Assembly (NCBI GenBank): GCA_032128875.1
Contig: JAVLKG010000005.1
Coordinates: forward strand, 448,001-512,000
DNA from: Candidatus Melainabacteria bacterium 17Bon1m
GTDB taxonomy: Bacteria > Cyanobacteriota > Vampirovibrionia > Obscuribacterales > Obscuribacteraceae
Reading direction: 5' to 3'
DNA: 64,000 nucleotides
Positions 2,662 through 43,865 of the stretch are shown one piece after another. The notes under the pieces are model-generated. The model was not told the origin of the DNA and made no database searches. It was given only the letters and a program-made list of their open reading frames with translations. The stretch's first letter is position 1, and every line of letters begins with the position of its first letter. The translations under genes were made by a program, and so were the position numbers.

Positions 2662-3792
2662 TTACTTCTGCCAATAAACCGCCGCACCATCAACTTCAAT
2701 GAGAGGTGCTTCTATTTTTCGCTCGTACCTAAAATCTATAATTGCCTTTTTGCAGGTTTCTAATAAATAGTCATCAACAATTACAAATCCATTTTCGGAA
2801 ACCTTGTCGTACAAGGCGTTTAGTGCGTCCATTGTTGATTCGTAAAGGTCGCCATCCAATCTCAAAATAGCTAGTCTTTTGATCGGCGCCACTGGCAGCG
2901 TGTCTTTGAACCAACCTTTTAGGAAGTGCACTTGATCGTCTAAAAGTCCAAATTTCTCAAAGTTCTGTTTCACTGTCTCAATTGAAACGGCCAATTCTTT
3001 CAGAGTCCAGTGGGGATCTCCTTTGTCAGCCGGATACTTTTCTGCATCGGGTTTTGGTAAACCTTCGAACGAGTCAGCAACCCAGATTTTTCTGTCATTT
3101 TGCAAGTAAGCACGACATATTGCTCGCATGTAGATACACGCACCACCACGCCAAACTCCAGTTTCTATAAAGTCCCCAGGTATGTTTTGCTTTATCACTT
3201 TCTCGCAAAGAAACCTGAGATTAGCCATTCTGGCGCGCCCGATCATTGTCACTGCCTCAGAAGGCCAATCCCAACCAATTTCTCTCAAGTCAGGGTTGAA
3301 ATCATCTGAAGAGCCAACCTGTAGTGGTTTGTCTCGATACAAGAGACCTACCAGAGCCTTTTCTAGAAGGTCTAAATAGAGTTTGGTGGAAGTGCTATCA
3401 AAACCTTGTGCCTCAGAATCTCCAACCTTCAAATGCTCGAGTTTTGAGTCAATGGCATACTCCATTGTCGAAAGCTTACCTAGCACTCGTGCAAAACTTT
3501 GCCCGACTTGCTGTTTGAGGTGAGCAACCTCTCCTCTCAATAATTCTCGCTCTCTGGTGAGAGTGGCATTATCTGCGCGAAGCTCACGACACTCAGCTTT
3601 TGCGAGTTCAAGCTTCTCTTGAAGATCTTTGATTTGACCAATGATACTGTCGTATCGGTTTCGAATCGCCGGGATTGAGAGCGCGACCGAACGTACAAGA
3701 GTTTTCGTCACATCAAACCCCTTTGAATTACCGGACCTAGACTCCTGAATCGGTATGTTAAAACCTTCTACGCCGGTTTGTATTTCATTCAA
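2662..3792 (-). CDS. TylF/MycF/NovP-family sugar O-methyltransferase with N-terminal coiled coil
   Basis: Motifs GDFIETGVWRGG, DSFEGLP, KGWFKDTLP, LRLDGDLYESTMDAL, VDDY. Heptad-like N-terminal segment QIKDLQEKLELAKAECRELRADNATLTRERELLRGEVAHLKQQ. Confidence 0.92.
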   Translation of the reverse strand: MNEIQTGVEGFNIPIQESRSGNSKGFDVTKTLVRSVALSIPAIRNRYDSIIGQIKDLQEKLELAKAECRELRADNATLTRERELLRGEVAHLKQQVGQSFARVLGKLSTMEYAIDSKLEHLKVGDSEAQGFDSTSTKLYLDLLEKALVGLLYRDKPLQVGSSDDFNPDLREIGWDWPSEAVTMIGRARMANLRFLCEKVIKQNIPGDFIETGVWRGGACIYMRAICRAYLQNDRKIWVADSFEGLPKPDAEKYPADKGDPHWTLKELAVSIETVKQNFEKFGLLDDQVHFLKGWFKDTLPVAPIKRLAILRLDGDLYESTMDALNALYDKVSENGFVIVDDYLLETCKKAIIDFRYERKIEAPLIEVDGAAVYWQK

Positions 3793-5666: not shown

Positions 5667-8600
5667 ATGCCTCGTCGCACGGATATCTCTAAAATCCTCA
5701 TCATTGGCTCCGGTCCTATCCGCATAGGTCAAGCTTGCGAGTTTGACTATTCCGGAACCCAGGCGTGCCAGGCGCTCCGCCAGGAGGGCTTTGAGGTCGT
5801 TCTGGTCAATTCCAACCCGGCGACCATCATGACCGACCCAGAAGTCGCTCAGCGGACTTATATAGAACCTTTGACCACAGAATTTGTGGAAGCGGTAATT
5901 GCACGCGAACGTCCGCAAGCGTTACTGCCGACAATGGGCGGGCAAACGGCTTTGAACATTGCGGTGAATTTGCACGACCAAGGCATTCTTCAGCGCTACG
6001 GTGTTGAACTAATCGGCGCAACTATGGAAGCGATCAATGTCGCTGAGGACAGGGCTCTTTTCCGCAGCAAGATGATAGAAATCGGCGAACCTGTGCCGCG
6101 TTCATTCATTGCGCATTCGCTAGAAGAAGTCGAAGAACACAAAGACGAGATCCCTTTGCCTTGCATCATTCGTCCTGCTTTTACTCTCGGTGGCACCGGC
6201 AGTGGTGCGGCTGACACTTACGAACAATTAGTGGCGGCCTGCCGCATCGGTTTGGCTGCAAGCCCTGTCAGTGAAGTTCTTATCGAAGAAAGCGTTTACG
6301 GCTGGAAGGAAATGGAACTCGAGGTCGTACGCGATAAGAAGGATAACTTCATCGTCGTTTGCGGCATAGAAAACCTCGATCCGATGGGCGTTCACACCGG
6401 CGATTCGATTACCGTCGCGCCGATACAAACGCTTAGCGATCGCGAGTATCAAAAGCTTAGAGATGCCGCAGCGAAGATTATCAGAGCGATTGGAGTCGAT
6501 TGTGGTGGTTCCAATATTCAATTCGCCGTCAACCCGGTGAATGGTGATTACATCGTCATCGAGATGAATCCGCGCGTGTCGCGTTCGTCCGCACTGGCAA
6601 GTAAGGCGACGGGCTATTCCATTGCTAAAGTAGCTGCGAAGCTCGCAGTCGGCTTTACGCTTGATGAACTCAAGAATGAAGTGGCCGGAATTTCAGCTTG
6701 TTTTGAGCCATCAATTGATTATGTGGTGACCAAAATCCCTCGCTTCAATTTCGATAAGTTCTACGGTGCAAAAGATGGTCTAGGTACTGAGATGCGCTCG
6801 GTGGGCGAGGTTATGGCGGTCGGTACTACTTTTGCCGAATCCATGCATAAGGCTCTGAGAAGTTTGGAACTCAATCTGGCTGGATTTACCGAAACGCCTG
6901 GACGTGCCGCAGCTACTCGTGAGCTATTGACCCAGAGACTGGCGACTCCGTCGCGCTATCGTCTCACCGATATCGCCACTGCTTATGCCCAGGGGTGGTC
7001 GGTTGAGGATGTGCAAAAGGTCTCGAAAATAGATCCGTGGTTTCTCCATAATTTGAAAGAAATTTGCGACAACGAGCGCGGTGCGCGAGCCGTAATTGCA
7101 AAAATCATTGAGAATTTCGGTGTCAAAGCACTCTTCCGCGAGTTTGAAGCGGGCTTGCTTTTGCGTCTCAAGCGCGAGTTCTTCAGCGATGCTCAAATTG
7201 CATCATTTATCAATTCGGCAGTTGGGCGTGAAGTTGCCACTGAAGGTGCCATTTACGCTTTTCGCCAACGCCTCGATTTGCGCCCGGTGTATAAGGCCAT
7301 CGACACTTGCGCCGGCGAGTTTCCCACTCAAACGAATTACTTGTACTCGACATTTGCTCCGGCTCGAGAAGAATACAAAGCTGACGACTCCCAGAAAGTG
7401 ATCATCCTGGGCAGTGGCCCGAATCGCATCGGACAAGCCATCGAGTTTGACTACTGCTGCGTTCAAGCCAGCTTGGCTATAAAAGAGCAAGGCAAGAAGT
7501 CGATCATTGTTAATTGCAATCCTGAAACAGTCTCAACAGACTACGATGTTTCTGATGTTCTCTACTTTGAGCCGCTGACTCTTGAATCAGTGAGCAATAT
7601 TCTTGCCGTAGAAAAGCCGCTTGGAGTGATTGTGCAATTCGGTGGACAAACGCCGCTCAATCTTGCCGAGAAGCTGGAAGCCCGTGGATTCAAGATTTTG
7701 GGAACTTCGGTGAAAGCAATCAAGCTTGCCGAAGATCGCTCCAGTTTTAGAACAGTTTTGTCCGAGCTGGGCATCAGGCAGCCGGAAGGCGCCATTGTTC
7801 ATACCCGTGACGAGGCGCTGAAAGCTGCACGCTTGTTGGGCTTCCCTGTTCTGCTACGACCGAGCTTTGTTCTTGGTGGAAAAGCGATGCACATTGCTCG
7901 CTCTTCGGACCACTTGCTCGAATTGATTGATTCTATTTTTGCGGCGTCGCCGGATCAGCCACTTTTGATCGATCGCTTTTTACAGCATGCTGTTGAAGTT
8001 GACGTTGATGCACTTTCAGATGGCGAGACGACTATCGTAGCCGGCATAATGGAGCACATCGAAGAAGCCGGAGTTCACTCCGGAGACAGTTCGTGCGTGC
8101 TGCCTTCGGTGTCTTTGTCCGAAGAATCAAAATCTCGCATTGTCGCTGCTACCGAAGCAATTGCTGAAAAACTGTCCGTCAAAGGTTTGATGAACGTTCA
8201 GTACGCTATCAAAGACGGTGAGCTTTACGTGCTTGAGGTAAACCCGCGTGCCTCGCGCACTGTTCCATTCGTTTCAAAAGCAACCGGAGTATCGTGGGCA
8301 AAGTTGGCGACCCGAGTGATCATGGGTGAAAAGTTGAGCGACTTGAAGCCGCTTATTCAGCCGGTCGACAATGGTTATGCCGTTAAGTCTGTCGTCATTC
8401 CTTTTGAGCGATTTGTCGATGCACAAGTTTGCCTCGGTCCTGAGATGCGCTCAACCGGTGAGGTTATGGGCCAGGGGGCGAGCTTCGAGGAGGCTTATGC
8501 CCGCGCGCAAATCGCGTCAGGAAAAGCCTTGCCAGTCAATGGACCGGTTCTTATTGCTGCCTCGGAGCATTTGATTGGTGAGGCGCTAAGTGTTGTTGAT

Positions 8601-8993
8601 GTTTTCCGGCGGCATGGCACCGAAGTGATTGTCACTTCCGAGGTTGCTGATTCATTCGATCCCATGAATGCTGATGCGGAAATTATTGATTTGACCAATT
8701 GGCGCATAGAGGACATAGCTGCCTGGATGAAGAAGGCTAACGTCAAACGCGTGGTCAGTTTGTCACCTTTCGACAAACTCTGTCCTGTTCAGGCGAAAGT
8801 TCGAAGAGCTGCCGTGGGACAGGCGATTCCATTGAGCATGACCACCAGAGATGCAATTGGTGTTAGCCAGGCAACAATGACGGTCTCGAAAATGAGTTTG
8901 CAGTTGAAAGCGATTCAAGAGCGCCGTGCTGCGGCTCCTCAGCCTCAATTCGCGGGCGCACCGGCAGCGCCGGTTGGCCAATTTACTATTTGA
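5667..8993 (+). CDS. carB: Carbamoyl-phosphate synthase large subunit
   Basis: [40 protein letters not shown], second ATP-grasp [36 protein letters not shown]. The C-terminal allosteric domain is diverged. Confidence 0.97.
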
Positions 8994-9014
8994 AAAATTT
9001 AACCGCCTTTCAAC

Positions 9015-9060
9015 CTGATATTTCAGTCAGGACTAGAGGTTGGCCTAAGGCTTATCATTG
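9015..9060 (+). promoter_or_regulatory. Putative promoter/operator element, copy 1, upstream of the carbamoyltransferase
   Basis: CTGATATTTCAGTCAGGACTA-N4-TTGGC..AAGG..TATCATTG; near-identical copy at 31148..31192. TATCAT is -10-like. Confidence 0.55.
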
Positions 9061-9107
9061 TGCCGGCGGCTTTCTTGCCGTCTTGCCACTAATCGGAAGG
9101 CGATAAC

Positions 9108-10946
9108 GTGACCGGAAAAGTTCGAATACTGGGGATCTCGGCTTATTACCATGACTCCGCCGCTTGCCTTGTAGAAGACGGTGTCATTGTTGCTGCGGCG
9201 CAAGAAGAGCGTTTCACACGGATAAAGGGCGATTCTAGTTTCCCTCACAATGCAGTTGGTTTTTGCCTTGAAACTGGCGGGATTACCGAAAAGGACATTG
9301 ATTATGTCGTTTTCTACGAGAATCCATACGCCAAGTTCGACCGACTTTTAACCACCTATCACGCTACTGTTCCGGCGAGTTTACCTTCATACCTGCGCAG
9401 TTTGCCGGTATGGTTGACTCAGAAATTGTGGATGAGAAAACAGATTTCCGAAGAGTTGGGCGTGAAAAAGCATGTCTACTTCTGCGATCACCACTTGTCG
9501 CACGCAGCCAGCGCCTTTTTTCCATCGCCATTTGAAGAAGCTGCGGTGCTTACGATCGATGGCGTCGGTGAATGGTCTACGACCACTTACGGCATAGGCA
9601 AAGGCGACGATCTGAAGCTGCTCAAGCACATTCGTTTTCCTAACTCACTTGGGTTGCTTTATTCGGCATTTACGTACTACACCGGCTTCAAAATCAATAG
9701 CGGTGAGTACAAATTGATGGGTCTTGCGCCTTACGGCAAGCCAATTTATGCACAGATGATCATGGAAAAACTGATCACCGTTGATGAAGAAGGTGCAGTT
9801 GCTCTTAACCAACATTACTTTGACTATGTTGGTGGACTGACCATGACTAATGCTCGTTTTGATGAGCTTTTCGGCGGACCTCCTCGGGAGCCGGAATCAA
9901 TCATTCGCCAGAAGGAAATGGATATTGCCGCGAGTATTCAGAAAGTTTTGAATGACGTCCTCATCATCATGGCTCGTCATGTGAAGGAAGCAACAGGAGC
10001 CAAAAACCTGGTGTTGGCCGGTGGAGTAGCGCTGAATGTAGTGTCTACTGGAATACTTTCGCGCGAAAAAATCTTCGAGCAAATCTGGATTCAACCGGCG
10101 GCTGGAGATGCCGGTGGCGCGCTTGGCGCTTGCCTCTGGATGTGGCATCAGGTTTTGGGCAAAGGCAGAACCGTTCAAAAGCCTGACTCCATGTCCGGTG
10201 CTTTCCTTGGTCTGGAAATCCCCGATTATTCCGAAGAGGATGATGCCGTGCTTCGCCGAATGGGCGCTGTTTGGCAAGAGATGGATGAAGAGACTCTGCA
10301 AGACGCAATTGCCGAGGCTATCGACAATGGAGAGATCGTTGCTGTAGCTAGAGGCCGCGCTGAATTTGGACCAAGGGCGTTAGGAAGCCGTTCTATTCTT
10401 GCCGATGCGCGCAGTCAGAAAATGCAAAGCCACTTGAACTTGCAGGTGAAGTTCCGCGAGAGCTTCCGACCTTTCGCTCCGATGGTTCTGGCTGAAGACG
10501 CTGAGGAATACTTTGATATTCCGCAAGAAAGTCCGTATATGTTGCTCTGTTACCCGGTTTTGGAAAAACAGAGAATTGCTGTGCAGGATAAGGGGCTGTT
10601 CGGAATCGATCTGTTGAAACAACCCCGCTCTAAGTTGCCGGCAATCACTCACGTGGATTACTCGGCTCGTGTGCAGACAATTGACAGAGACAGAAATCCG
10701 TTTATTCATTCTGTCATCAGCAAATTCAAAAGCCGCTCCGGCTGCTCGGTAATCGTCAACACGTCATTCAACGTGAGGGGCGAGCCGATTGTGAACACCG
10801 CAGAAGATGCATATCGCTGCTTTATGGCCACGGAAATGGACTGCGTGGTGATTGGAAATCGTTTCTTTAGAAGAAAGGACCAGCAGGAAAAACCGCTCAG
10901 CGAAGAAGAAAGATCTGCCTGGTTGAGGAGGTTCGACCTTGACTAA
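9108..10946 (+). CDS. O-carbamoyltransferase, NodU/CmcH/SxtI family
   Basis: LGISAYYHDSAA, QEERFTRIK, HHLSHAASAF, DGVGE, GEYKLMGLAPYG, AGGVALN, AGDAG, EFGPRALGSRS, KFRESFRPFAP, THVDYSARVQT, NTSFNVRGEPIV. Confidence 0.96.
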   Translation: MTGKVRILGISAYYHDSAACLVEDGVIVAAAQEERFTRIKGDSSFPHNAVGFCLETGGITEKDIDYVVFYENPYAKFDRLLTTYHATVPASLPSYLRSLPVWLTQKLWMRKQISEELGVKKHVYFCDHHLSHAASAFFPSPFEEAAVLTIDGVGEWSTTTYGIGKGDDLKLLKHIRFPNSLGLLYSAFTYYTGFKINSGEYKLMGLAPYGKPIYAQMIMEKLITVDEEGAVALNQHYFDYVGGLTMTNARFDELFGGPPREPESIIRQKEMDIAASIQKVLNDVLIIMARHVKEATGAKNLVLAGGVALNVVSTGILSREKIFEQIWIQPAAGDAGGALGACLWMWHQVLGKGRTVQKPDSMSGAFLGLEIPDYSEEDDAVLRRMGAVWQEMDEETLQDAIAEAIDNGEIVAVARGRAEFGPRALGSRSILADARSQKMQSHLNLQVKFRESFRPFAPMVLAEDAEEYFDIPQESPYMLLCYPVLEKQRIAVQDKGLFGIDLLKQPRSKLPAITHVDYSARVQTIDRDRNPFIHSVISKFKSRSGCSVIVNTSFNVRGEPIVNTAEDAYRCFMATEMDCVVIGNRFFRRKDQQEKPLSEEERSAWLRRFDLD

Positions 10947-11610
10947 GACTGCATTAGCTGAAAGAAACGAAGTTGCCTTCAGACCCAATCGCAATGCGCG
11001 GGGCTCAGGTCATGTGAGCTCTTACATGAAGCGCTTGAACGTGCGCAGAGAGCGCGCGGCTTTGAAAAACAACGTTATTTTTGGACTGACAATCGGCTGG
11101 GTGCTCACTTTGATGGGCGCTTTCAAAACTTACATTTTGCTTGAAAGCGGCGTGTCGCAGCTGATGCTGGTCGCTGGTGTGGCATTCCTCGGCACCACGC
11201 TTGTTGCGCCCGGACTGATGATTTATCCGCATAAAGTCATGAAAGGGATCGCTACTTTTGTTGGCACCAATTTGTTCAAAGGAATTCTTTGTGTTGTTTA
11301 TTTCCTGACTATCCTGCCTGCAGGACTTATCTACCAGAAGAAAAACAATCACGAACCCTTTTACTCATGGGCAGCGGGTAATGCTCCTAAGATTGAAGGA
11401 TGGACGGAAAAAATTGCCTCTGACGAAAATGGTAAGTCTTCCGAATACAGCTTGCCTGGTTGGCTGCAACCACTCTCTGTCGTGATCTATTTCGCGCGCA
11501 ACAGTCAGTTGCTTTTCCTTCCTTGCTTGATCGTACTTCTCATGCTCGGATTGATCGGAGTTTTTGTTCAAAGCAGTGCGTTGGCTCCATTTATATACAC
11601 ACTGTTCTAA
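10939..11610 (+). CDS. SxtJ-like membrane protein fused to an SxtK-like (DUF5989-type) C-terminal membrane peptide
   Basis: Three hydrophobic segments including N..ILCVVYFLTILPAGL (SxtJ-like), then LPCLIVLLMLGLIGVFVQSSALAPFIYTLF (SxtK-like). Overlaps the carbamoyltransferase stop, the usual context of these families. Confidence 0.8.
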   Translation: MTKTALAERNEVAFRPNRNARGSGHVSSYMKRLNVRRERAALKNNVIFGLTIGWVLTLMGAFKTYILLESGVSQLMLVAGVAFLGTTLVAPGLMIYPHKVMKGIATFVGTNLFKGILCVVYFLTILPAGLIYQKKNNHEPFYSWAAGNAPKIEGWTEKIASDENGKSSEYSLPGWLQPLSVVIYFARNSQLLFLPCLIVLLMLGLIGVFVQSSALAPFIYTLF

Positions 11611-11634
11611 GAAGCTGTTTTAAGAGGAAGAGAG

Positions 11635-13215
11635 TTGCTGGAATTAGCTAGCAAGCCAAAAACAAGCAAAGCAGCTCCGCGTCATTTGTCCGCGGGGACT
11701 GTTGCTCTAACGTCCATCGGCTACTTTGCTGCGTCGCTTGCGATTATCGTCGGTGCTGCATTTGCTCTTGACCGCTGGATTATTCCCGAGATGGAAAATC
11801 GCGGTTATCTCGAATCTCATTTGTGGGCGGATGAAAATCATCAGCTCAATCACTTCACCTATGTGAAGAATGAAGCGCGTAAGGAAAACCCTGTCTGGCG
11901 TTCGCAGTATATTCCCGTAACTGCAGAGCATCCTGGCAAACAGCGAATTCTCGTTATCGGCGATTCATTTGTTTGGGGGGATGGTTCTAACAATGTGAAC
12001 ACCCTCTGGTGGCGCCAATTAGAGCTCGAGCTACAACATCGTGGCTACAACAACGTTGAAATCGTTGCGGCCGGATTGAATGGTGCCAGTACGCACGACC
12101 AGCTGAATTGGTTGGGTTCGATCTTGCCGAAATACACGCCAGATCTTGTGATATTTGGCTGCGTCACCAATGACGCCGATGAAAAGGATGCTAGCGGTAA
12201 GTCTTATGTGCGCATGATTCCGAAAGAATTGCCCGCACGAGAAAGTGCTGATTCTAAGCTGAACAGTCTCTTGCCAAATCTGTCCGGACAGTTGGAGCAG
12301 ATAAGTAAACTCTCGCGCCTGGCTCATTTGAGTCAGAAGTCCACAGCATTGGAATATGCAGATTGGGAACTTGCCTTGTTGAAAGGACAGAATTTCAAAG
12401 CGTATCAAAATACCGTTTCGTCTCTTGCTAATCAATTGAAAACCGCTGGTGTACCGGCCTTTGTAATTTCGCTTCCGGCTGGTTTTCAAAACAAGACAAA
12501 AGAAAACACAGCCGGCGGACAAAACTTCTTCGATAGTGTGAAGGCCTACAATGAGCAGCGTTTTTCCGCTTTTGCGCCAGTGTTCAAGTCCTCGGGTCTA
12601 CTCTTTGTTGATACGACCGAAGCATTCGCAAAGGCTGCATCTGCCGATCCCCGTTTGAAGTCGAGTGGCTCGCCTCTGCGTCTGGGAATAAATCCCAGCA
12701 ATGGACATCCTGGTCCGTTCTCGACCCACTTCTATGCTGTTTCTGCTGCCGATACTATCGAGCGAAATTTCCCTGCTCTCTTGACCAAAACAGCCAGTGC
12801 ATCCAATTCGACTGTTTCCAGATCAGGCGTTGAGATAAACGACTGCATGCCGCCGTATATGAACGTGCGTGCTGATGAGAAAGAGGCTGGCAGTTTTCAG
12901 TTCACCTATCCGCCTGATGTTGCTGAACATACTTTGTTCATGCCGTTGCGTCGCCGTCACGTTCAACTGTCCTTAAAAAAACCAGCTCAAGTTCATACCG
13001 TTGAAATCAGCGGAGACAACCTATCTGCTGCACAGATTTATCCGAGCTTTTTCGATGCCAAACTTGGCTACACGCCGGACGAATTCTCATCGTTGCCACT
13101 TAAAAAGGGAAATGTGCTTACCTGGAATTTGGGCGACAAACAACTGAGCGCACTCAAGATCCGCGCTAGCTTTAATGGCGGCAATCAGGCGCTCAAAATC
13201 CATTTTACGAACTAG
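11635..13215 (+). CDS. Membrane-anchored SGNH/GDSL-fold protein
   Basis: N-terminal TM helix; block I RILVIGDSFVWG, block II GLNG, block III TND, block V-like PSNGHP. Paralog at 23468..25024. Confidence 0.85.
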   Translation: MLELASKPKTSKAAPRHLSAGTVALTSIGYFAASLAIIVGAAFALDRWIIPEMENRGYLESHLWADENHQLNHFTYVKNEARKENPVWRSQYIPVTAEHPGKQRILVIGDSFVWGDGSNNVNTLWWRQLELELQHRGYNNVEIVAAGLNGASTHDQLNWLGSILPKYTPDLVIFGCVTNDADEKDASGKSYVRMIPKELPARESADSKLNSLLPNLSGQLEQISKLSRLAHLSQKSTALEYADWELALLKGQNFKAYQNTVSSLANQLKTAGVPAFVISLPAGFQNKTKENTAGGQNFFDSVKAYNEQRFSAFAPVFKSSGLLFVDTTEAFAKAASADPRLKSSGSPLRLGINPSNGHPGPFSTHFYAVSAADTIERNFPALLTKTASASNSTVSRSGVEINDCMPPYMNVRADEKEAGSFQFTYPPDVAEHTLFMPLRRRHVQLSLKKPAQVHTVEISGDNLSAAQIYPSFFDAKLGYTPDEFSSLPLKKGNVLTWNLGDKQLSALKIRASFNGGNQALKIHFTN

Positions 13216-23467: not shown

Positions 23468-25024
23468 TTACTTCACTTCCAGAATCAAACCGCGATTAGC
23501 TCCTATGACTTTCGCAGATATGTTGATAGTGTTTATCCCTCGACCTTTTGCTTCCGGTAATTTCCAGGAGAGCCACGAGCCATTTTTGTTTCCGAGACTG
23601 AACATTTCGCCATTGTCGAAATGTTTTGCTGCATCCACATTCGTTATGTAGAGCGATGCGCCCTTGAGCCCTGTGCCTCCTAGGGTAATTTCCTTCGCAT
23701 TGATAGGCGTTTCTAAATTGAGCTCGATGAATGGCTTTCTCAAAGGCATATTGCGGAAGTCGTCCGCCAATTTCATTGGATATACAACAACAATTTTGTT
23801 GTCTGTCTGTTGGATTTGTAAATTGGGCGGAATGCAGTCGTTGACGCGTAACTGGGCGTCTTTCGATGTGGGCTCACTGGACTTTGTGCCAAGAATCGGC
23901 GCAAAATCCTTTTCTAAAACATCAGCCGCATGAACACCGTAAGCATATGTTGCCCATCTGTTCGGATGCGCGTTGGCAGGATTTACGCCAAAGGACAGGA
24001 CACCCTTTTTTACAAGGCTGTCTTCTTTTCTGGCTGCGTTGATCCATGTGTCGTAGCTGTCTACAACACGAACATCGCGATCCTCGAAGGCTTTTTTGAT
24101 CGGCGGAAAAACGCGATCATAATGTGCCTTGATTCCGTCGAAGTCGACTTTTCCAGGGCACTCATATGGCAAAAGCATGATGAATGAAGGGATGGAGAGG
24201 CTGTGCAGATAATTTGCTGTATTGTCGAGCGTTTTGCCGTACATGCTCCAGTTCTCGCCGGAAAGCAGGCTAAACTCCCAATTGGGCGGGTTATCCTTTG
24301 TGAATTCACCTGAGCGTGTCTTACGCAGATAAGCTTCCCGCAACGCGATCAGTTGATGTGAAAGATGTGGGTACAGTCCTTTGAATGCTTCGAGTAATCC
24401 ATTTTGGCGATGAGGACGGAATAGCAACTTCTGGTCGAAGTCTGCTGTTTGCATTCGCGACATTTCGTCTGCGTCATTGGGAATATATCCCCAAATCACG
24501 AGGTCAGGCTTGAATTTCGGGATTACCTTTTTGGCAGCATCGAGTTCTAAGCGCGTGTTTAAGCCCTGCATTCCGGCTGCGATTATTTCTACATCTTTGT
24601 AGCCGCGACGCTCCAATTCTCTGGCCAGCTGACGCCACCAGATGTCGTTCATGTTGTTGTAACCATGACCCCATACGAAAGAATCGCCAATTACCAGAAT
24701 GCGATGAGCTTTGGCAGACTTCTCTGCGACCGGCCACAAACTGGAGTGCCAGACAGGATTTTGATTGAGATCTGCTTTATTCCTGGCGTGTGCCCAGTAA
24801 TAGATGAAATCGTCCTCTTCTGTCCACGACGCTGAAACGATTTTGCCTTCGTCTTCCAAGGCAGGGATGATCAAGCGATCAAGCACAACAGAGACAAGCA
24901 AGATGAATGCCAGCGAAATCGAGAAATACTTAACGCTAAGTTGCGGAAATATTGCCGCTTTCGTATGAGGTTTCTCTGATTTTTCAGCGCTAATTTTTTG
25001 AGTCACTTCGCCGGCAGCAATCAC
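23468..25024 (-). CDS. Membrane-anchored SGNH/GDSL-fold protein, paralog of 11635..13215
   Basis: LDRLIIP, NPVWHS, RILVIGDSFVWG, WWRQL..EL.RRGY, NDADE, GVNPANAHPN, VNDCIPP, MPLRK, all matching the paralog. Confidence 0.85.
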   Translation of the reverse strand: MIAAGEVTQKISAEKSEKPHTKAAIFPQLSVKYFSISLAFILLVSVVLDRLIIPALEDEGKIVSASWTEEDDFIYYWAHARNKADLNQNPVWHSSLWPVAEKSAKAHRILVIGDSFVWGHGYNNMNDIWWRQLARELERRGYKDVEIIAAGMQGLNTRLELDAAKKVIPKFKPDLVIWGYIPNDADEMSRMQTADFDQKLLFRPHRQNGLLEAFKGLYPHLSHQLIALREAYLRKTRSGEFTKDNPPNWEFSLLSGENWSMYGKTLDNTANYLHSLSIPSFIMLLPYECPGKVDFDGIKAHYDRVFPPIKKAFEDRDVRVVDSYDTWINAARKEDSLVKKGVLSFGVNPANAHPNRWATYAYGVHAADVLEKDFAPILGTKSSEPTSKDAQLRVNDCIPPNLQIQQTDNKIVVVYPMKLADDFRNMPLRKPFIELNLETPINAKEITLGGTGLKGASLYITNVDAAKHFDNGEMFSLGNKNGSWLSWKLPEAKGRGINTINISAKVIGANRGLILEVK

Positions 25025-25256: not shown

Positions 25257-28139
25257 TTGCAACAGTTGATTGACTCGTGGAATGCATTGTCAGAGCGCAA
25301 GAGAGACGGCGTTTGTCTTTTGCTGCTCACGTTGTTTTGTTTAATTGTTTTCTACAAGACCGTGTTTTTGGGTCAGCAGATTAGCCGAATATTCGAAATT
25401 GCCAATATCGACTATTTGTTCAGGCAAGCCTTGGCTGTTCCAATCAAGTATGACCAGCACTGCATGTTCGCCAAAGTGTGCGCATACCTGTTGATTGGTA
25501 CAACTTGGAGAGAAGGCATAATGCCGTTTTGGAATCCGTACATAGGGTGCGGTGCTCCATTCATGGCCGAGCTGCAGTCTGTTGTGTTGTCACCGTGGAC
25601 GTTGTTCTACGTTTTGTGGCCCAGTCTTCAGATGCACAGCTATCTGCTTGTTGCACAGCAGGTTTTGGGAGCGATCGGAATGTTCCTCGCTGCGCGCGCT
25701 TTAGGGCTTTCGCGTTTTGCTTCAGTATTGGCTGCCGTTGTGCATTTGTGTTGCGCTCACCAGCAGTGGCGCCTCGAGTTGCAGATGAATCATTCTTTCT
25801 ATCCGCTTACCGTTTGGTGTTTTGTTCGTCTGTATCAGACGAAGCATTTTTTATGGGCTCTGGCAGCAGGCGCTGGATGTGCGGCGCAAATTCTTTCCGG
25901 CGACGCACAAGTAAGTTTGCTTTCCATAACCACCGTCAGCGTTCTTTTTGTCTTGATGAACCTTCTTGGCGAAGCCAGGCAAGAAGCGTTTTTCAAGCGT
26001 GCGATTGAGGGCGGCGTTTGGTTGTCGCTGGCAGGAATTAACGCAATTTGTTTGGCGTCTCCAGTCTTTCTCGGCTTTGTAGAATGGGTCAAGATAGGCG
26101 ATTTGTCTAAGCACCATGCCTATTATGCAGTTGGAAATCCCGCTCCCTGGCAGAGTCTTGTCTATACTCTGATGCACCCCGGTTATGGCGGTTCATCGTT
26201 GTACGCCGGTTGTTTGACTCTGCCCTTGATTGTCTTTTCACTGCTTGCAATAAAGCAAAAACGCCCTTTCTATCTCAGCGTTTTGCTTACTGCAATTTAT
26301 GCTTTCATGAGCGCGTCTCGCACGGGACCGTTTCCTTTACTGGACTCGAAACTCGGTCTCATGGGACTTTCTCGATTCGAGGGAATGGAGGTTTTCCTTG
26401 TCCAAATCGCTTTTCTCATGGCGTTTGGCCTGGATGAACTGGCCAGATGCAAGTGGACTGTGAGAAATTGGGTTTTTCTTGCGGCCGTTGCCTCCTCTAT
26501 TGCGTCTCTTGCAATTCCTCCTTATCTCGCGAAGATAGGCGTAAATCTCGAAGCGTTTACGTTCGACTTTCATTCGGAAGGATACGGCTTTCAATCGCAA
26601 CAGTGGTATTTCGATCTTGCCTTGGTTTGTGCCTTTTGGGTTCTTCTAGTTCTCGTAAATAGCTATCGAGCAAAGCTGAAGAGCATCGCAGTTATTTTGC
26701 TTTTTGTTATTCCACTGTGCATAAACACAAGCAGCGAGGTCTTCGCTTGCAAAAATGCCTTGCCTAGTTATCCCAAATTCAAGTATCCGAAGACAGAATT
26801 ACTCCAATTTCTTGCTGAGAAAAAAGAGCGCATTGTTCCTATTGGATATAACCTGTTAAGACCAAACAACAATGTTGTTTATAAAATCTCGAGCATGGCG
26901 TGGGCTGGACCTCTTGTGCCTCCGCGGCTGCACAAATTCATAATAGCTGCAGGTGGGCACGCTGATCCATTTACAAAACTGTTTACCCCTGGCCCTCTAA
27001 ACCATCTGCTCGATTTGGCGAGCATCCGATACATCCTTAGTTTTGCTCCTGTGCGCAGTCTGAGCGAACCATATACTTTCGAATCACCTACCGCGCAACC
27101 TGTGAAATTCAAAATTGAACAACGGGTAAGAATGGATGCTGCAAAACTTTTCTACGACTCTCCAAAGGGCGAATTTGGCGGATATATAGACTGGTATGTG
27201 CAAGAGGGCGAAGGCGAGAACTTCGCTTTCCAGATTGCTCTCTTTGACTCTAAAACTGGCAGGGTGTATTGGACTGGCGGACCATTTTATGTCCGTCAGA
27301 CAGAGCGCTTGAAGCGCGATACGCGTCCAAAAACATACAGCCGCATGCCGCTGGACGGCATTGTTCCCAACCATGTGCCCGACTCTACAGATTTATGCGT
27401 GGGAATCACTGTCCAGCAGATTCCTGAGATGAATGAGCTCGAGCCGCAAAGTGGCGGAACGCTTGTTAGTAAAACCATGTTCAAGGTCGCAGATTTTAGA
27501 AAACAATCTCTGCCTTTGGATGCGGCGCGACGCTTCAAAATGGTCAAGGAAGTGCCTGTCAGCTTTGTTCGGGTCTATGAAAACAGAAAGGCAATGCCGA
27601 CTGCATATCTTGTGCACAAAACCGTTCTGAAAGAGAAAGAAGACGAAGTTCTTGCAGAAGTGACAAACCAGGCGTTTGATGCGCGATCTGTTGCCGTAAT
27701 CGAAGACAAGAATTTACCGCCATTGACTGGAGCCGATAAGCCGTCCGCCGCCGATGAAGTCACTTCGGTGAGAACCGACAACAATACTTTGTCTGTTGAT
27801 GTGAAAACTGATAAGCCTGGTTTTTTGGTGGTAACCGACCAATATTTCCCTGGGTGGCATGCTGTTGTGGATGGTGCAGAGGTTGCGATCGCGCACGCCA
27901 ATTACCTATTTAAGGGCATTCCCATTGGTCCTGGCACGCACAAAATCATCTTCTATTTCCGCCCGACATTTTGGAATCTTTCGCTCGTTTTATTGGCTCT
28001 CTGTTTCATTCTGAACACTGCAGCCTTTATCTTCCAGCAAAAGCGGCGCAAGGACATTGCTTCGCCTGCTTACGGCAGCGCTTCAACACCTTCCGGGTCT
28101 TTATCTGGAGGTGGTGGAGGCGAGGACGAGCAAAATTGA
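25257..28139 (+). CDS. YfhO-family (GT-C) membrane glycosyltransferase
   Basis: PFWNPYIGCGAPF, many TMs, C-terminal LVVTDQYFPGWHAVVDG..ANYLFKGIPIGPGTHKI followed by a TM. Confidence 0.85.
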   Translation: MQQLIDSWNALSERKRDGVCLLLLTLFCLIVFYKTVFLGQQISRIFEIANIDYLFRQALAVPIKYDQHCMFAKVCAYLLIGTTWREGIMPFWNPYIGCGAPFMAELQSVVLSPWTLFYVLWPSLQMHSYLLVAQQVLGAIGMFLAARALGLSRFASVLAAVVHLCCAHQQWRLELQMNHSFYPLTVWCFVRLYQTKHFLWALAAGAGCAAQILSGDAQVSLLSITTVSVLFVLMNLLGEARQEAFFKRAIEGGVWLSLAGINAICLASPVFLGFVEWVKIGDLSKHHAYYAVGNPAPWQSLVYTLMHPGYGGSSLYAGCLTLPLIVFSLLAIKQKRPFYLSVLLTAIYAFMSASRTGPFPLLDSKLGLMGLSRFEGMEVFLVQIAFLMAFGLDELARCKWTVRNWVFLAAVASSIASLAIPPYLAKIGVNLEAFTFDFHSEGYGFQSQQWYFDLALVCAFWVLLVLVNSYRAKLKSIAVILLFVIPLCINTSSEVFACKNALPSYPKFKYPKTELLQFLAEKKERIVPIGYNLLRPNNNVVYKISSMAWAGPLVPPRLHKFIIAAGGHADPFTKLFTPGPLNHLLDLASIRYILSFAPVRSLSEPYTFESPTAQPVKFKIEQRVRMDAAKLFYDSPKGEFGGYIDWYVQEGEGENFAFQIALFDSKTGRVYWTGGPFYVRQTERLKRDTRPKTYSRMPLDGIVPNHVPDSTDLCVGITVQQIPEMNELEPQSGGTLVSKTMFKVADFRKQSLPLDAARRFKMVKEVPVSFVRVYENRKAMPTAYLVHKTVLKEKEDEVLAEVTNQAFDARSVAVIEDKNLPPLTGADKPSAADEVTSVRTDNNTLSVDVKTDKPGFLVVTDQYFPGWHAVVDGAEVAIAHANYLFKGIPIGPGTHKIIFYFRPTFWNLSLVLLALCFILNTAAFIFQQKRRKDIASPAYGSASTPSGSLSGGGGGEDEQN

Positions 28140-31243: not shown

Positions 31244-32788
31244 GTGCGCATTTGCCTGATTTCTCGCGAATATCCTCCTGATACTGGATTTGGTGGTATC
31301 GCTACTTTCACGCGCCACCTGGCGCAAGGATTGAAATCTATCGGCCACGACGTGGTGGTAGTGGCGCTTGCAAAGGAAGGCAAAGACGCTGAATTGCAGG
31401 ACGATCTGGGTATCCCGGTCCACAGAGTTGTACCGTTACCGATCGGTGCTGATTTAGGCTGGACGGCTTTTTGTATGCCATATAGCCGCTATGTAATGCG
31501 CACAAGTTCCGCACTGTATGCCAAATTCGATGAATTGAATGCGATGCAGCGATTTGACGCAGTTGATACACCCGAACTTCTTGCAGAAGGCTATTTCCCC
31601 GCAATCACCAAGTGCACTCCGCTTACTATCAGGCTTTACACACCGCACTCAAAATTTATTGCAGAAAAACTGCACAACGTAACCGATACATTTGACCATC
31701 AATATGTAGCGGCAGTTGAGAGAATCGCAATGCTTTCGGCTGACGTGATTACTTCACCCAGTCTCGATCTTGCTCAGTTTGTCGCCGGCGATCTCGGTAT
31801 TAAGGTCGAAGATATCGACATTGTCTACAATCCGATTGACGCCTCAGAATTCAGCCCCGACGGCGAATCCGCAGACATCGGTCCGAAGGGGCGTACGGTC
31901 TTATTCGTTGGCCGGCTTGAAGCTCGCAAGGGCATTCATTATCTTATCGATGCCATCCCGCAGGTCGTTGCCGCTGTACCCGACGCAAGATTTGTCATTA
32001 TCGGCGATGACACAGCCAATGCTCCCGGGCAAAAATCAGTCCTCACCGAGATAAAGGAGCGTCTGGAGAAGACCGGGTGCTCTGATTCAGTGACTTTTAT
32101 CAATCGGATTCCACTCGCCGATTTGCCCAAGCACTATAGAGCTGCAGCTGTATGCGTGGTTCCTTCTCTGTACGACAATTCTCCATACACCTGCCTGGAA
32201 GCGATGTCTTGCGGACGGGCCGTGATTGGTACCGACGGCGGTGGTACGAAGGAATATATTGTGCATGGTGAGTCGGGTCTGATCGTCCCTGTTAAGGATG
32301 CCGGAGCTCTCGCGTCGGGGATAATCAAGCTTTTGAGTGACGAGAAAGAGCGGGCTCGTATTGAGACAAATGCAAGAAGGCGAGTATTGGAAGTTTTTGA
32401 TCGCGCTGAAATTGCAAGGAAGACTGCGGAGCTATATAAAAAAGCCGCCCTGCGCTTCTCAGAAGTTCAGACAAGCGCCTACCAGGGCGCGCCGAGCGAT
32501 GTGCTGCTGGATGCTGACGAATTTCTCTATCAGCACGACAGAATGATCCGTGACCTCATTTTAGATAGTTCCATTCGAGCTTATTGGAGGGAAACTATGA
32601 AGACGGCCGCAGTACGCCCTCGACTGACATTGGTTCGGATGGCTCTGTCCATTCTCAAGGCAGCAGGAATGGGTTCCATGAAGTTTGTCAGGCGTTTGGA
32701 TTTACAGGTTCGAGAGAAAGAACGTGAACGGCTGCCTTTGCTTTCTCAAAGAAAGCCTCCGGCTGAACAGCAGAAAGTAGTTGTCTAA
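31244..32788 (+). CDS. GT4 glycosyltransferase, paralog of 18420..20009
   Basis: MRICLISREYPPDTGFGG, FVGRLEARKG, PSLYDNSPYTCLEAMSCG. Confidence 0.92.
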   Translation: MRICLISREYPPDTGFGGIATFTRHLAQGLKSIGHDVVVVALAKEGKDAELQDDLGIPVHRVVPLPIGADLGWTAFCMPYSRYVMRTSSALYAKFDELNAMQRFDAVDTPELLAEGYFPAITKCTPLTIRLYTPHSKFIAEKLHNVTDTFDHQYVAAVERIAMLSADVITSPSLDLAQFVAGDLGIKVEDIDIVYNPIDASEFSPDGESADIGPKGRTVLFVGRLEARKGIHYLIDAIPQVVAAVPDARFVIIGDDTANAPGQKSVLTEIKERLEKTGCSDSVTFINRIPLADLPKHYRAAAVCVVPSLYDNSPYTCLEAMSCGRAVIGTDGGGTKEYIVHGESGLIVPVKDAGALASGIIKLLSDEKERARIETNARRRVLEVFDRAEIARKTAELYKKAALRFSEVQTSAYQGAPSDVLLDADEFLYQHDRMIRDLILDSSIRAYWRETMKTAAVRPRLTLVRMALSILKAAGMGSMKFVRRLDLQVREKERERLPLLSQRKPPAEQQKVVV

Positions 32789-36609: not shown

Positions 36610-37416
36610 ATGACGGATTACCTGACACGCCTTGAGCATGAAAGCGTATTCATAATACGCGAGGCTTATAAAAAAGTAAGGAACTTGGCCCTTCTGTGGT
36701 CGATGGGAAAAGATTCGACCGTTCTTCTGCACCTTGTGCGGAAGGCATTCCTGGGTCACGTTCCGATACCTCTGGTGCATATCGACACCAGCTACAAGAT
36801 TCCAGAAATGATCACGTGGCGCGATCAATACGTCAAAGATCACGGGCTGCGGCTTATCGTTGGACAGAACAAAGCTGCCCTAGCTGACGGAATGGGACCT
36901 GATAAAGGTCGTCTTGTTTGTTGCGGCGCTTTGAAGACTCAAGCTTTGCTCGACACGATCAAAGAGAACAACATCGGCGGACTTTTGCTCGGCATCAGGC
37001 GCGACGAAGAAGGCTCGCGCGCAAAAGAGCGCGTTGTTTCTCCGAGACCGGAGAACGGAACCTGGACGTATAAAGATCAGGTCGCCGAAATCTGGAATCA
37101 CTACAATTTGCATTTGCCGGAAGAAGTTCACATGCGTGTCCATCCGCTTTTGAGCTGGACCGAGCTTGATGTCTGGGAATACATCGAAAGAGAAAAATTG
37201 GACATCATGCCGTTGTATTTCAGCAATGCCGATGGGCAGCGCTATAGAAGCTTGGGCTGCTGGCCGTGCACGGGCACTATTGATTCGTGCGCATCGACTA
37301 TTGAATCGATCGTAGACGAAATTCGCACCACAAAAACTTCCGAGCGCGCCGGTCGTGCTCAAGACAACGCTGATACCTATGCAATGCAGAAATTGCGCAG
37401 TCAGGGATACATGTAA
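36610..37416 (+). CDS. cysD: Sulfate adenylyltransferase subunit 2
   Basis: LEHESVFIIRE, SMGKDS PP-loop, HIDT, RRDEEGSRAKER, RSLGC, terminal GYM. Confidence 0.93.
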   Translation: MTDYLTRLEHESVFIIREAYKKVRNLALLWSMGKDSTVLLHLVRKAFLGHVPIPLVHIDTSYKIPEMITWRDQYVKDHGLRLIVGQNKAALADGMGPDKGRLVCCGALKTQALLDTIKENNIGGLLLGIRRDEEGSRAKERVVSPRPENGTWTYKDQVAEIWNHYNLHLPEEVHMRVHPLLSWTELDVWEYIEREKLDIMPLYFSNADGQRYRSLGCWPCTGTIDSCASTIESIVDEIRTTKTSERAGRAQDNADTYAMQKLRSQGYM

Positions 37417-42210: not shown

Positions 42211-43662
42211 CTAAAACTGGAAGTAGATGAAAGGCGTTGTGCTGTCCGGGCAGAACGTAATTACCAGCATGATTACAACGGCGAAATAGAGCGCTTTTGC
42301 AGGTGCCGGCACACGCTGGAAAAATCCTGTTTGTCTCAGGTATCCGACAACTGGTGTAGCCAAAAGTAAAAGGGCAACGAGCACAATTACAGTCGGAACG
42401 ACAACCGGTAGCTCTGGTCTGAAGACGAGGAAATGACCAGCTTCAGCTTTTGTGAAAATGGGCGAAAGCAGCACCATTTTCTTGACCATGCTGAATGCAG
42501 CGCCGATGTCGGTGATGCGGAAGAATATCCAACCGATGCATACGACGTGGAATGTCAGCAGCATCGACAAAATATTGAACACTTTGCTCTCGAAGAAAGC
42601 ACGTAAATGGCTTGTGTTCTCACGCCATTGACTGAAATTTCTATGAACGATCAAACAAAGCCCGTGGAAGACGCCCCAGACAACGAAGTTCCAAGACGCT
42701 CCGTGCCAGAGCCCTCCGAGCGCCATCGTCAGCAAAAGATTGCGATCTGTCATACGTTTGCTTCCCCGCGAGCCACCGAGCGGAATGAAGAGATAGTCTC
42801 TGAGCCAGGTGGAAAGCGAGATATGCCAGCGCCTCCAGAAGTCGGACATATTGCTGGCGATGTAGGGAAGGTTGAAATTGAGCGGGATATGATAACCAAA
42901 AAGAAGCGCCGAACCCCGCCCGATATCTGTATATCCCGAAAAGTCGAAATAAATTTGGAATGCGAAGGCGTAGGCCATGAGCCAAGTTTCAACAGAGCCG
43001 TAAGACGCGTGCGTTTGAGACATCATGTCGACCAGCACTGCCAGGTTGTCCGCCAAGAGCAGTTTTTTCGCTACACCCATGACGATGAGCGGAATTCCCT
43101 CGTCGAAATAATCAAGACTGAGCTTCTTCTCTTCCTGCATTTGTGCCTGGAAGTCAGGAAACCGCTTAATTGGTCCGGCGATTTGCGTAGGAAAGAAAGC
43201 CGCGAACAATGCGAAAAGAACAAACGAGTCTATCGGCTTGCGACCGCGATTGATTTCAAATAGATAGTGTATAAATTCGAAGACGAAGAAGGAAATTCCG
43301 AGCGGCAGAATGATATTCAGCGCAACATGAGACGTTGAATGCGTTATAGGCCGGAGCAGTGCTTCAAACGTGCTGATGAAGAAGTTCATGTATTTGAAAT
43401 AGGCAAGGCAAAGCAAATTTATTGCAACGCCTGCGCCAAATATCACTTTTCTATTCGCTTCTGCCTTTGTTAGCAGTTTTCCCCAGAGCCAGTTGAATAG
43501 AGTCAGTCCAAGAATAAGCAGACCAAAAATTGGAATCCAGCTCATGTAGAAGATATAACTGGCCACGAGCAGCATGGGCAGGCGAAAACGCTGCGGCAGC
43601 AACCAGTAAAGGAGGACCACAGTGGGGAGAAACAGGAGATATTCAAAGCTCGTGAAAATCAT
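42211..43662 (-). CDS. MBOAT O-acyltransferase, AlgI/PatA type
   Basis: LPLGISFF, FFPTQIAGPI, QIYFDFSGYTD, DFWRRWHISLSTWLRDY, GLWHGA (catalytic His), terminal PFIYFQF. Start set at ATG 43662. Confidence 0.95.
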   Translation of the reverse strand: MIFTSFEYLLFLPTVVLLYWLLPQRFRLPMLLVASYIFYMSWIPIFGLLILGLTLFNWLWGKLLTKAEANRKVIFGAGVAINLLCLAYFKYMNFFISTFEALLRPITHSTSHVALNIILPLGISFFVFEFIHYLFEINRGRKPIDSFVLFALFAAFFPTQIAGPIKRFPDFQAQMQEEKKLSLDYFDEGIPLIVMGVAKKLLLADNLAVLVDMMSQTHASYGSVETWLMAYAFAFQIYFDFSGYTDIGRGSALLFGYHIPLNFNLPYIASNMSDFWRRWHISLSTWLRDYLFIPLGGSRGSKRMTDRNLLLTMALGGLWHGASWNFVVWGVFHGLCLIVHRNFSQWRENTSHLRAFFESKVFNILSMLLTFHVVCIGWIFFRITDIGAAFSMVKKMVLLSPIFTKAEAGHFLVFRPELPVVVPTVIVLVALLLLATPVVGYLRQTGFFQRVPAPAKALYFAVVIMLVITFCPDSTTPFIYFQF

Positions 43663-43865
43663 AAAAAACGACCTGAACAGCTCGTGAATTCGGGCAAAAC
43701 ACTGCGATGGTAGCACGGCTGTCAAGGCGTTCGGGCATCTCTTAGAAAAGGCCTATAGTTAATTGTTTTTCTTATTTACGCGTAATGGCGAAATGCAAGT
43801 TGCCGGGCTGTTGTACTGTCTTTAGTTGCGCCTGGTCGCTTAGAAACTGTAAACAAATTGTGTTA

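Follow-up and report, generated by a model that had tools for sequence, protein, structure and literature searches.

How could a carbamoyl group that is activated in the cytoplasm come to be placed on a glycan outside the cell? The question is raised by an operon in a 64,000-nucleotide stretch of the genome of Candidatus Melainabacteria bacterium 17Bon1m (GenBank assembly GCA_032128875.1, contig JAVLKG010000005.1, positions 448,001 to 512,000 of the forward strand; the whole stretch is hereafter called the window). Four co-oriented genes on the + strand, taken from a list of open reading frames (ORFs) and named by Pfam and NCBIfam, encode a carbamoyl-phosphate synthase large subunit (CarB), a CmcH/NodU-type carbamoyltransferase, a fusion of SxtJ and SxtK (hereafter JK), and an SGNH protein. 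An earlier, sequence-only reading of the window had described these genes as a relay that passes a carbamoyl group across the membrane, and the ORF coordinates and domain names bear out its account of the four genes. The reading preferred here, tentatively and as a possibility rather than a probability, is that the operon serves extracytoplasmic O-carbamoylation of the glycan made by the surrounding gene island, by way of a tyrosine carbamate on the C-terminal tail of JK that would be discharged, in this clade, by the anchored SGNH protein or its paralogues. SxtJ and SxtK have remained without an assigned mechanism since the saxitoxin clusters were described (PMC2679770), as the sequence-only reading had said; reviews up to 2025 and a 2026 preprint state that they "work in conjunction". 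The features on which the argument turns are as follows (lengths in amino acids, aa).

5667..8993, + strand: carB, carbamoyl-phosphate synthase large subunit, 1108 aa (NCBIfam NF003671, Pfam CPSase_L)
9108..10946, + strand: CmcH/NodU-type O-carbamoyltransferase, 612 aa (PF02543, PF16861)
10939..11610, + strand: JK, SxtJ-SxtK fusion membrane protein, 223 aa, TTG start (PF19451, hhalign)
11590..11607, + strand: terminal hexapeptide FIYTLF of JK (Tyr220), followed by the stop codon TAA at 11608-11610 (read from the bases)
11635..13215, + strand: N-terminally anchored SGNH protein, 526 aa (PF13472, Lipase_GDSL_2)

The JK protein and its tail

A tyrosine acyl shuttle has been established, only recently, in systems built around membrane-bound O-acyltransferases (MBOATs; PMC12148441 and PMC13653941, both cited here for their passages on the C-terminal motif). 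According to those passages, DltX and the C-termini of PatA-type MBOATs bear a conserved FXYXXF, the tyrosine of which accepts the acyl group for onward transfer to a serine in the partner protein, SGNH or DltD. PatA of Neisseria (NgPatA) ends FIYANF (PMC12148441), and DltX of L. plantarum, a protein of 49 residues, ends FIYNEF and works beside a DltD that has one N-terminal transmembrane (TM) helix (PMC13653941). The background that the sequence-only reading had given for the Dlt and PatA systems agrees with these accounts. JK has the same feature: a C-terminal FXYXXF with a free C-terminus and a tyrosine that is invariant in the family.

The tail of JK exceeds chance. Of the 18,222 stop-to-stop frames with a length of 100 aa or more that the genome contains, only 15 end in F.Y..F: each of the 14 MBOAT matches coincides with one of them, and the fifteenth is JK. 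All 14 MBOATs end F[IV]YFQF, with proline directly before the motif in nine. One of them lies in the window, outside the cassette, and serves as a comparator.

42211..43725, - strand: MBOAT, 504 aa, ending TTPFIYFQF before the stop codon (PF03062)

Its tail at 42214-42231, already pointed out from the sequence, is indeed the last six codons of this minus-strand gene (PFIYFQF-stop). The protein matches PF03062 with an E-value (E) of 2.5e-30, and its nearest NCBIfam model is DltB, at a score under the cut-off of that model. As a separate observation, 14 MBOATs are an unusually large envelope acyltransferase set for one genome.

No other part of the family is as well conserved as the tail. When 1.84 billion representatives were searched with a profile (E up to 0.001), 5,810 DUF5989 (SxtK) members, counted as clusters at 50% identity, were returned, and in 127 of the best 150 of these 5,810 representatives the match stops at the last residue. 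The pattern [FL]IY[TP]LF ends 26 of 27 fused homologues from five phyla, down to 30% identity, and the tail VQSSALAPFIYTLF is kept in JK homologues down to 33% identity. Short homologues of 47-83 aa end SALAPFIYTLF without exception (13/13), as do, in FIYTLF, all 30 sampled DUF5989 ORFs from Cyanobacteriota genomes and, in F[IV]YTLF, all 30 from Pseudomonadota genomes (FVYTLF in one). The conservation of the tyrosine and of the free C-terminus, on which the earlier proposal depended, is therefore found throughout these three sets.

The naming of JK calls for some care. DUF5989/SxtK (PF19451) is matched at residues 184-223 (37.7 bits against a cut-off of 27, E 2.1e-9), and the 54-aa tail alone scores 41.3 bits. 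The N-terminal part (residues 30-169) has no match to the Pfam SxtJ model (PF19588) at E up to 0.01; in a profile-profile comparison (hhalign) with 25 cyanobacterial SxtJ proteins that do match PF19588 it aligns over 89 columns with 96.7% probability (E 4.7e-10). The nearest Atlas clusters to JK are SxtJ clusters as well (scores 0.84-0.86, taken as leads only). Since Pfam matches SxtK and the profile comparison matches SxtJ, JK is classed, on these profile matches, as an SxtJ-SxtK fusion with a divergent SxtJ as its N-terminal part; the label given by the sequence-only reading holds for SxtK by Pfam and for SxtJ by profile-profile comparison, and finds no support from the Pfam SxtJ model. Homologues beginning MTK... 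at this position support the assigned start. A fold search with the JK model returned generic helical hairpins only (Z at most 7.2) and was uninformative, and, of 76 candidates for long fused forms of DUF5989, such as fusions with CmcH, SGNH or MBOAT proteins, none scored, which is weak evidence.

The genes on the 5' side of JK would supply the group to be carried. The operon CarB passes the equivalog model NF003671 with 1484.6 bits against a cut-off of 599 and has CPSase_L domains. It is the second carB copy of the genome, 55% identical to the other copy (contig C2:952655-955855), and is not accompanied by a carA; the only carA of the genome (C2:1001049-1001423) is on another contig than the operon, about 45 kb from the other carB. 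In ten Melainabacteria loci (L006, L007, L009, L012, L014, and L019-L023) carB likewise lies directly 5' of the carbamoyltransferase gene.

The carbamoyltransferase has the two domains that define the CmcH/NodU class of O-carbamoyltransferases, an N-terminal Kae1-like domain (PF02543, Carbam_trans_N, E 8e-92) and a C-terminal YrdC-like domain (PF16861, Carbam_trans_C, E 6.6e-68). At 144 bits against a cut-off of 1000 it falls under the NodU equivalog and is therefore not NodU itself. It is the sole PF02543 match in the genome, which accordingly has one CmcH beside one JK protein, and its gene is overlapped by the JK gene by 8 nucleotides. The N-terminus, MTGKVRILGISAYYHD, has no hydrophobic leader, so that the signal peptide is missing, as had been noted; because the enzyme needs ATP and carbamoyl phosphate and lacks a leader, it is presumed to work in the cytoplasm. 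Its C-terminus (...WLRRFDLD) is kept in relatives, and carbamoyltransferases partnered with SxtJ and SxtK have a conserved C-terminal ...W-L-x-[RK]-F-[DEA]-L-D (10920-10946 in the window, and relatives), which may be a docking element. It should be noted that in one locus, from a Rivularia metagenome-assembled genome (L025, 6160-7993), the carbamoyltransferase 5' of JK is broken into two overlapping frames, possibly by a frameshift or an assembly error.

The SGNH partner, membrane topology and the proposed relay

The fourth protein of the operon matches PF13472 (E 4.1e-8) and has the blocks of the SGNH superfamily: block I (GDS), II (G), III (GxND), and V (His). In 15 homologues S111 (GDS), G147/G150, N179 (GxND), and H358 (NPxNGHP) are invariant, so that the catalytic residues are intact; an aspartate three residues ahead of the histidine is not conserved in the same 15 sequences. 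A K/R-rich N-terminus precedes a long helix at residues 20-55 of the AlphaFold2 (AF2) model, and with PF13472 this agrees with the N-terminally anchored SGNH protein of the sequence-only reading. In the model (predicted local distance difference test, pLDDT, 82.6) a TM helix and stalk lead into an SGNH domain that contains a helical insertion, and the C-terminus is formed by a beta-sandwich, which is placed as in carbohydrate esterases and is sugar-binding-like. The fold is confirmed by structure comparison: the best Foldseek match is a two-domain acetyl-mannan esterase (6hfz), and further comparison ranks CgnD first (Z 17.1), with PatB at Z 15.0 and many esterases at Z 13-15. Judged from the model, the fold matches transferases and esterases equally and does not tell them apart. 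A PDB sequence search with the SGNH profile returned generic GDSL esterases only (best E 2.6e-5) and did not retrieve CgnD at E up to 1.

The genome has four SGNH/beta-sandwich paralogues, three besides the operon copy at 29-33% identity, one of them in the window.

23471..25024, - strand: SGNH/beta-sandwich paralogue, 518 aa (BLASTP, tblastn)

This protein is 33% identical to the operon copy over its full length (BLASTP E 3e-95), keeps the GDS, ND, and His motifs, and may serve the same shuttle as an additional partner. The other two were found by tblastn of the genome (C5:393187-394707 and C10:43173-44645), and none of the three adjoins an MBOAT gene.

A contact between the SGNH protein and JK is weakly supported by complex prediction, with ipSAE scores of 0.48, 0.51, and 0.51, where the best of three controls reached 0.00; in the calibration, at scores of at most 0.60, 7 of 80 solved complexes reach the mark, as do 2 of 110 mismatched pairs. 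The partners had a pLDDT of 54 or more, and contact agreement between runs was at least 62%. These predictions raise the odds that the two proteins touch and are silent on entry of the tail into the active site, which the earlier proposal would require.

In 26 loci from five phyla that encode a fused JK, CmcH lies directly 5' of JK in 23 of the 24 whose sequence extends far enough upstream, and 25 have a homologue of the 526-aa SGNH protein, at times in two or three copies.

For the tail to meet this partner it would have to lie outside the membrane. The AF2 model of JK (pLDDT 72.5) has helices at 2-36, 43-60, 62-106, 145-158, and 164-193, in the numbering of a 194-aa form, and hydropathy finds three strong segments and one weaker. 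Across 27 JK sequences the segment ahead of helix 1 has 5.1 K+R residues on average, loops 1 and 2 have 0.1 and 2.0, loop 3 with its 58 aa has 6.9, and the tail has 0. Summing these means, any model with three spans puts the tail outside with a strong charge bias (about 12-15 inside against 0.1-2.1 outside), and a model with four spans and the N-terminus inside puts the tail inside with no bias (7.1 inside, 7.0 outside). Standalone SxtK has R-K-K ahead of its helix and no charge after it, and the C-terminus of standalone SxtJ is very basic. Because the charge bias, the charges of standalone SxtK, and the basic SxtJ C-terminus agree, the residue distribution favours a loop 3 in the cytoplasm and an external tail. 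A relay through Tyr92, an invariant residue of helix 3 (194-aa numbering), was considered and dropped, as standalone SxtJ often has Phe or Ala at that position.

Taken in order, we infer every chemical step, the outward topology of the tail, and the membrane path as follows. CarB would supply carbamoyl phosphate, which the cytoplasmic CmcH-type enzyme would activate as carbamoyl-AMP, by analogy with TobZ-type enzymes, for which this is the activated form. The carbamoyltransferase would dock on the cytoplasmic loop of JK, and the carbamoyl group would be borne as an O-carbamoyl ester by the invariant tyrosine of the FIYTLF tail, which would lie at the outer face of the membrane like the shuttle tails of DltX and the MBOATs. 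The part of the MBOAT as a path through the membrane would fall to SxtJ; since CmcH is presumably cytoplasmic and the operon encodes no known conduit, SxtJ would have to supply one. In this clade the tail would pass the group to Ser111 of the anchored SGNH protein, or to one of its paralogues, and the SGNH protein would move it onto a hydroxyl of the exported glycan held by the beta-sandwich domain. Aryl carbamates carbamoylate the serine of serine hydrolases, and the shuttle chemistry is plausible for that reason. The observations counted for this reading are the tail, the build of helix, TM helix, and tail, the intact SGNH protein, the synteny of the fused clade, the second carB, the glycan island, and the complex score.

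As to that island, domain annotation shows the whole window to be devoted to a surface glycan, with GT2 and GT4 glycosyltransferases, sugar epimerases and dehydratases, a phosphomannomutase, and a nucleotidyltransferase. The source names of close homologues include Candidatus Obscuribacterales and Melainabacteria. The island also encodes a CysD-like protein and a CysN/C fusion (sulfate activation) together with a sulfotransferase (36610-39297 and 60244-61191), a TylF-type O-methyltransferase (2665-3792), an ABC-2 exporter pair (48180-49825), and a pair of YfhO-like membrane proteins, each about 950 aa long (25257-28136 and 32788-35637). Its glycan is probably heavily decorated.

Points against the relay and rival explanations

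Several observations weigh against the relay, and three rival explanations are considered beside it. To begin with the tail, its likeness to the MBOAT C-termini does not extend further into the protein. When DUF5989 was compared by hhalign with the last 60 aa of the 14 MBOATs, the match had 16% probability and covered the tail only, and homology was rejected; with the tails removed there was no match. The kinship that the sequence-only reading had drawn between the two kinds of tail is thus confined to the terminal motif, which does align. A PDB sequence search with the DUF5989 profile returned no DltX-like chain and one chance match (E 1.3), and a Pfam scan of two C-terminal tails at E up to 10 returned no DltX-type family. 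Furthermore, one fused homologue is off the pattern, that of Schlesneria sp. (L027, 8001-8606), which ends FIYTIG, and 23 of the best 150 of the 5,810 DUF5989 representatives have mutually unrelated residues past the motif, which are probably read-through gene calls.

The limit of the likeness to the tail bears on the idea that the shared tail has arisen by convergence, unrelated to group transfer, as a membrane-insertion, lipid-contact, or quality-control signal of some C-terminal TM helices. That idea accords with the lack of detectable homology past the tail and with a motif that is short and hydrophobic. It does not account for the other 18,207 long frames of the genome, which are without the pattern, or for the invariance of the tyrosine and of its spacing from the C-terminus, and the partner set of an activating enzyme and an N-anchored SGNH protein parallels those of Dlt and PatAB. 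Convergence is judged the most improbable of the explanations considered.

A second group of observations concerns the distribution of the SGNH gene. The exceptions to the synteny of the fused clade are found in two loci from Obscuribacterales/Melainabacteria, which carry second JK copies (L012, 8001-10227; L015, 8001-10233) that have a GT4 glycosyltransferase gene on their 3' side and no SGNH gene; the L015 copy is also without an adjacent carbamoyltransferase. In a sample of 401 Cyanobacteriota genomes, many of them close kin so that counts are not independent, DUF5989 is present in 74, PF02543 in 87, and both in 71, with 63 of 75 DUF5989 matches within 5 kb of PF02543. An SGNH gene is adjacent in 18 of 30 cyanobacterial loci, for which the sequence reaches only 1.5 kb to either side (10 confirmed by Pfam, 8 assigned by position, length, and GDS motif). 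Some cyanobacterial loci (L043-L046 and genomes G184, G113, G023, and G038) have the SxtJ-SxtK pair alone, followed by RNase III, with the carbamoyltransferase hundreds of kilobases off or on another contig. DUF5989 is likewise present in 68 of 401 sampled Pseudomonadota genomes. Over 7 kb on each side of 20 loci from this phylum, CmcH is beside DUF5989 in all 20 and SxtJ is present in 16, and an SGNH profile match is found in just five, with GDSL domains confirmed by Pfam in L093, L095, and L102; in most of the remaining loci Pfam shows glycan-synthesis or unrelated genes adjoining the cassette. The constant unit is CmcH-SxtJ-SxtK, with SGNH as a frequent but optional fourth member, and since so few of the proteobacterial loci have an SGNH match, the SGNH step is not obligatory in the mechanism of the family. 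The joint occurrence of all four genes expected by the sequence-only reading therefore holds for the three-gene core and for nearly all fused loci, and gives way in Pseudomonadota.

Two further proteobacterial arrangements may be recorded. In L095 (5904-13445) CmcH-SxtJ-SxtK-SGNH stands beside an MBOAT ending FIYFDF and two more SGNH genes, so that systems for acetylation and for carbamoylation are direct neighbours there, and in L109 (2610-5159) and L111 (2387-4930) the cassette lies beside an 850-aa MptE-like protein, of a family linked to flagellin glycosylation.

An optional SGNH gene is what would be expected of a shuttle that has no obligatory SGNH step, in which the tail tyrosine gives the carbamoyl group directly to the acceptor or to varied partners and the SGNH proteins found in this clade are accessories by which the choice of acceptor is broadened or edited. 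The evidence of the tail serves this explanation as well as it serves the relay through SGNH, and so do the 15 proteobacterial loci without an SGNH match, the second JK copies, and the four SGNH paralogues against one JK and one CmcH in the genome under study. On the other side, those genomes could encode an SGNH partner at another place, and the SGNH homologue of the fused clade is nearly always adjacent to JK. Moreover, all of the characterized shuttle systems covered in the part of the literature drawn on here discharge the acyl-tyrosine through an SGNH or DltD-type enzyme (PMC12148441). A shuttle of this kind seems unlikely, though less so than convergence.

The weak link of the relay through SGNH is its first step, in which a cytoplasmic carbamoyl group would have to reach a tyrosine on the outside without an MBOAT or a known conduit. 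As the sequence-only reading had remarked, there is no MBOAT in the operon, nor is there one in the 26 related fused-JK loci, and the nearest MBOAT gene of the genome is about 29 kb off. That SxtK might serve a tail-less MBOAT, as DltX serves DltB, was considered and dropped: the one MBOAT found beside a cassette, that of L095, already ends FIYFDF, and each of the 14 in the genome under study is tailed too. Topology adds to the difficulty, in that a plain four-span, N-in arrangement of the four hydrophobic segments puts the tail in the cytoplasm and the tail-out arrangement requires that one segment of JK does not span the membrane. On the side of the SGNH protein, its closest structural relative, CgnD, is a very slow hydrolase or "protease" in vitro and is not labelled by phenylmethylsulfonyl fluoride (PMSF), as far as the consulted part of PMC10070186 describes it, and SxtL has been proposed in reviews to be a decarbamoylase.

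Some of these points also serve the strongest rival, in which JK is a scaffold that only tethers CmcH at the inner face, a lipid-linked or nascent glycan is the direct substrate of CmcH and is carbamoylated before export, the tail is a contact or stability element, and the SGNH protein on the outside is an esterase that trims carbamoyl or acetyl groups. CmcH-family enzymes are known to carbamoylate hydroxyls of small molecules directly. The constancy of the CmcH-SxtJ-SxtK core in proteobacterial loci, with SGNH optional, would fit such an arrangement, as would proposals in an older literature that SxtI acts together with SxtJ and SxtK and that SxtL is a hydrolase; the hydrolase activity described for CgnD in the part of its report drawn on here (PMC10070186) and the lack of an evident membrane conduit point the same way. 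A pure tether, however, leaves unexplained why an acyl-shuttle hexapeptide stands at the free C-terminus as the most conserved part of thousands of members, and why the pattern is otherwise found only on MBOATs in this genome; furthermore, the charge bias sets the tail on the side of the membrane opposite to CmcH. Such a scaffold is regarded as doubtful and ranks as the main rival, with the shuttle that lacks an obligatory SGNH step and then convergence behind it.

The carbamoyl relay of the sequence-only reading thus keeps its motif, its gene order, and its anchored SGNH protein, and is weakened by a likeness that ends at the tail, by an SGNH gene that is optional elsewhere, and by a membrane conduit that is not evident. 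A wider proposal, that DUF5989/SxtK is the carbamoyl counterpart of DltX and forms with SxtJ an MBOAT-independent tyrosine-carbamate device reaching the outer face, with SxtL-type SGNH proteins as terminal carbamoyltransferases and not decarbamoylases, is held less firmly than the relay proposed for this operon and is best viewed as a speculative extension of it. The cassette itself is already known; no paper linking DUF5989/SxtK to an acyl shuttle was found, although a mention in Kellmann 2008, in Schultz 2023, or in supplements is possible. Were the relay to hold, it would be a case of the tyrosine-shuttle principle working without an MBOAT and carrying carbamoyl, so that the shuttle would be tied neither to MBOATs nor to acyl esters, envelope polymers could gain carbamoyl groups outside the cytoplasm, and a small protein of three to four helices could stand in for an 11-helix MBOAT as the part that crosses the membrane. 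On the wider proposal the device would be widespread, given the genome counts and the cluster number reported above, and would explain why the cassette moves as a unit into glycan islands and natural-product clusters. Should the relay prove false, the invariant tail would still want an explanation. Here a very large family bears a shuttle hexapeptide and occurs with an activating enzyme and, often, with an anchored SGNH protein, which makes a mechanism for SxtJ and SxtK directly testable.

Comparison with known systems

The system with which JK invites comparison first is DltX-DltB-DltD, taken here from its published description. Standalone DUF5989 is a protein of 47-59 aa in which an amphipathic helix is followed by a TM helix, with a conserved R-K-K between the two and the tail at the end, and as a single-pass microprotein it resembles the 49-aa DltX; both have FIYxxF at a free C-terminus, both are accompanied by a partner enzyme with one N-terminal TM helix and an extracytoplasmic Ser-His domain, and in both the transferred group is activated by a cytoplasmic ATP-dependent enzyme. 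The cassette differs in having neither an MBOAT nor a carrier protein, in that its group would be carbamoyl and not an acyl ester, and in that its microprotein is paired with, and here fused to, SxtJ, which has no counterpart in Dlt.

PatA/PatB, AlgI/AlgJ, and WssH/WssI resemble the cassette in that the hexapeptide comes after a peripheral helix and the final TM helix (AF2 helices 145-158 and 164-193 in JK), in that the fold of the cassette SGNH protein is near that of PatB (Z 15.0, root-mean-square deviation, rmsd, 3.4, 192 aligned residues), and in that the 14 MBOATs of this genome end in the same hexapeptide pattern, F[IV]YFQF. They differ in that the cassette tail is borne by a four-helix protein instead of an MBOAT, the likeness is limited to the tail (about seven residues), and the cassette donor is not acyl-CoA.

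CgnD of the crocagin pathway (PDB 8a2n) is the best match to the SGNH domain, helical insertion included (Z 17.1, rmsd 3.7, 238 aligned residues), and by the portion of its report drawn on here the crocagin cluster also encodes a carbamoyltransferase, CgnI (PMC10070186). It differs in that it was purified as a soluble protein and is described there as a slow leader peptidase (PMC10070186), and in having no sequence-level match to the SGNH profile. A carbamoyl-related role of CgnD is perhaps worth a look.

With the saxitoxin genes sxtI-sxtJ-sxtK-sxtL the comparison is one of whole gene order. The present cassette differs in that J and K are fused, in that its SGNH protein has an extra beta-sandwich, and in its setting, a glycan island of a non-photosynthetic cyanobacterial relative, with no toxin genes seen in the window; the cyanobacterial loci used above for comparison were not identified as toxin clusters. 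In the part of the saxitoxin report consulted, the cluster runs in the order sxtI (1839 bp), sxtJ, sxtK, sxtL (GDSL), and the cassette follows this same order and likewise ends with a GDSL/SGNH protein (PMC2679770). The 612 aa of the carbamoyltransferase equal the length implied by the 1839-bp sxtI (PMC2679770), SxtK corresponds to DUF5989, the N-terminal half of JK matches SxtJ by profile comparison, and hhalign matches the SGNH domain to SxtL-like proteins of cyanobacteria over 265 columns (97.4%).

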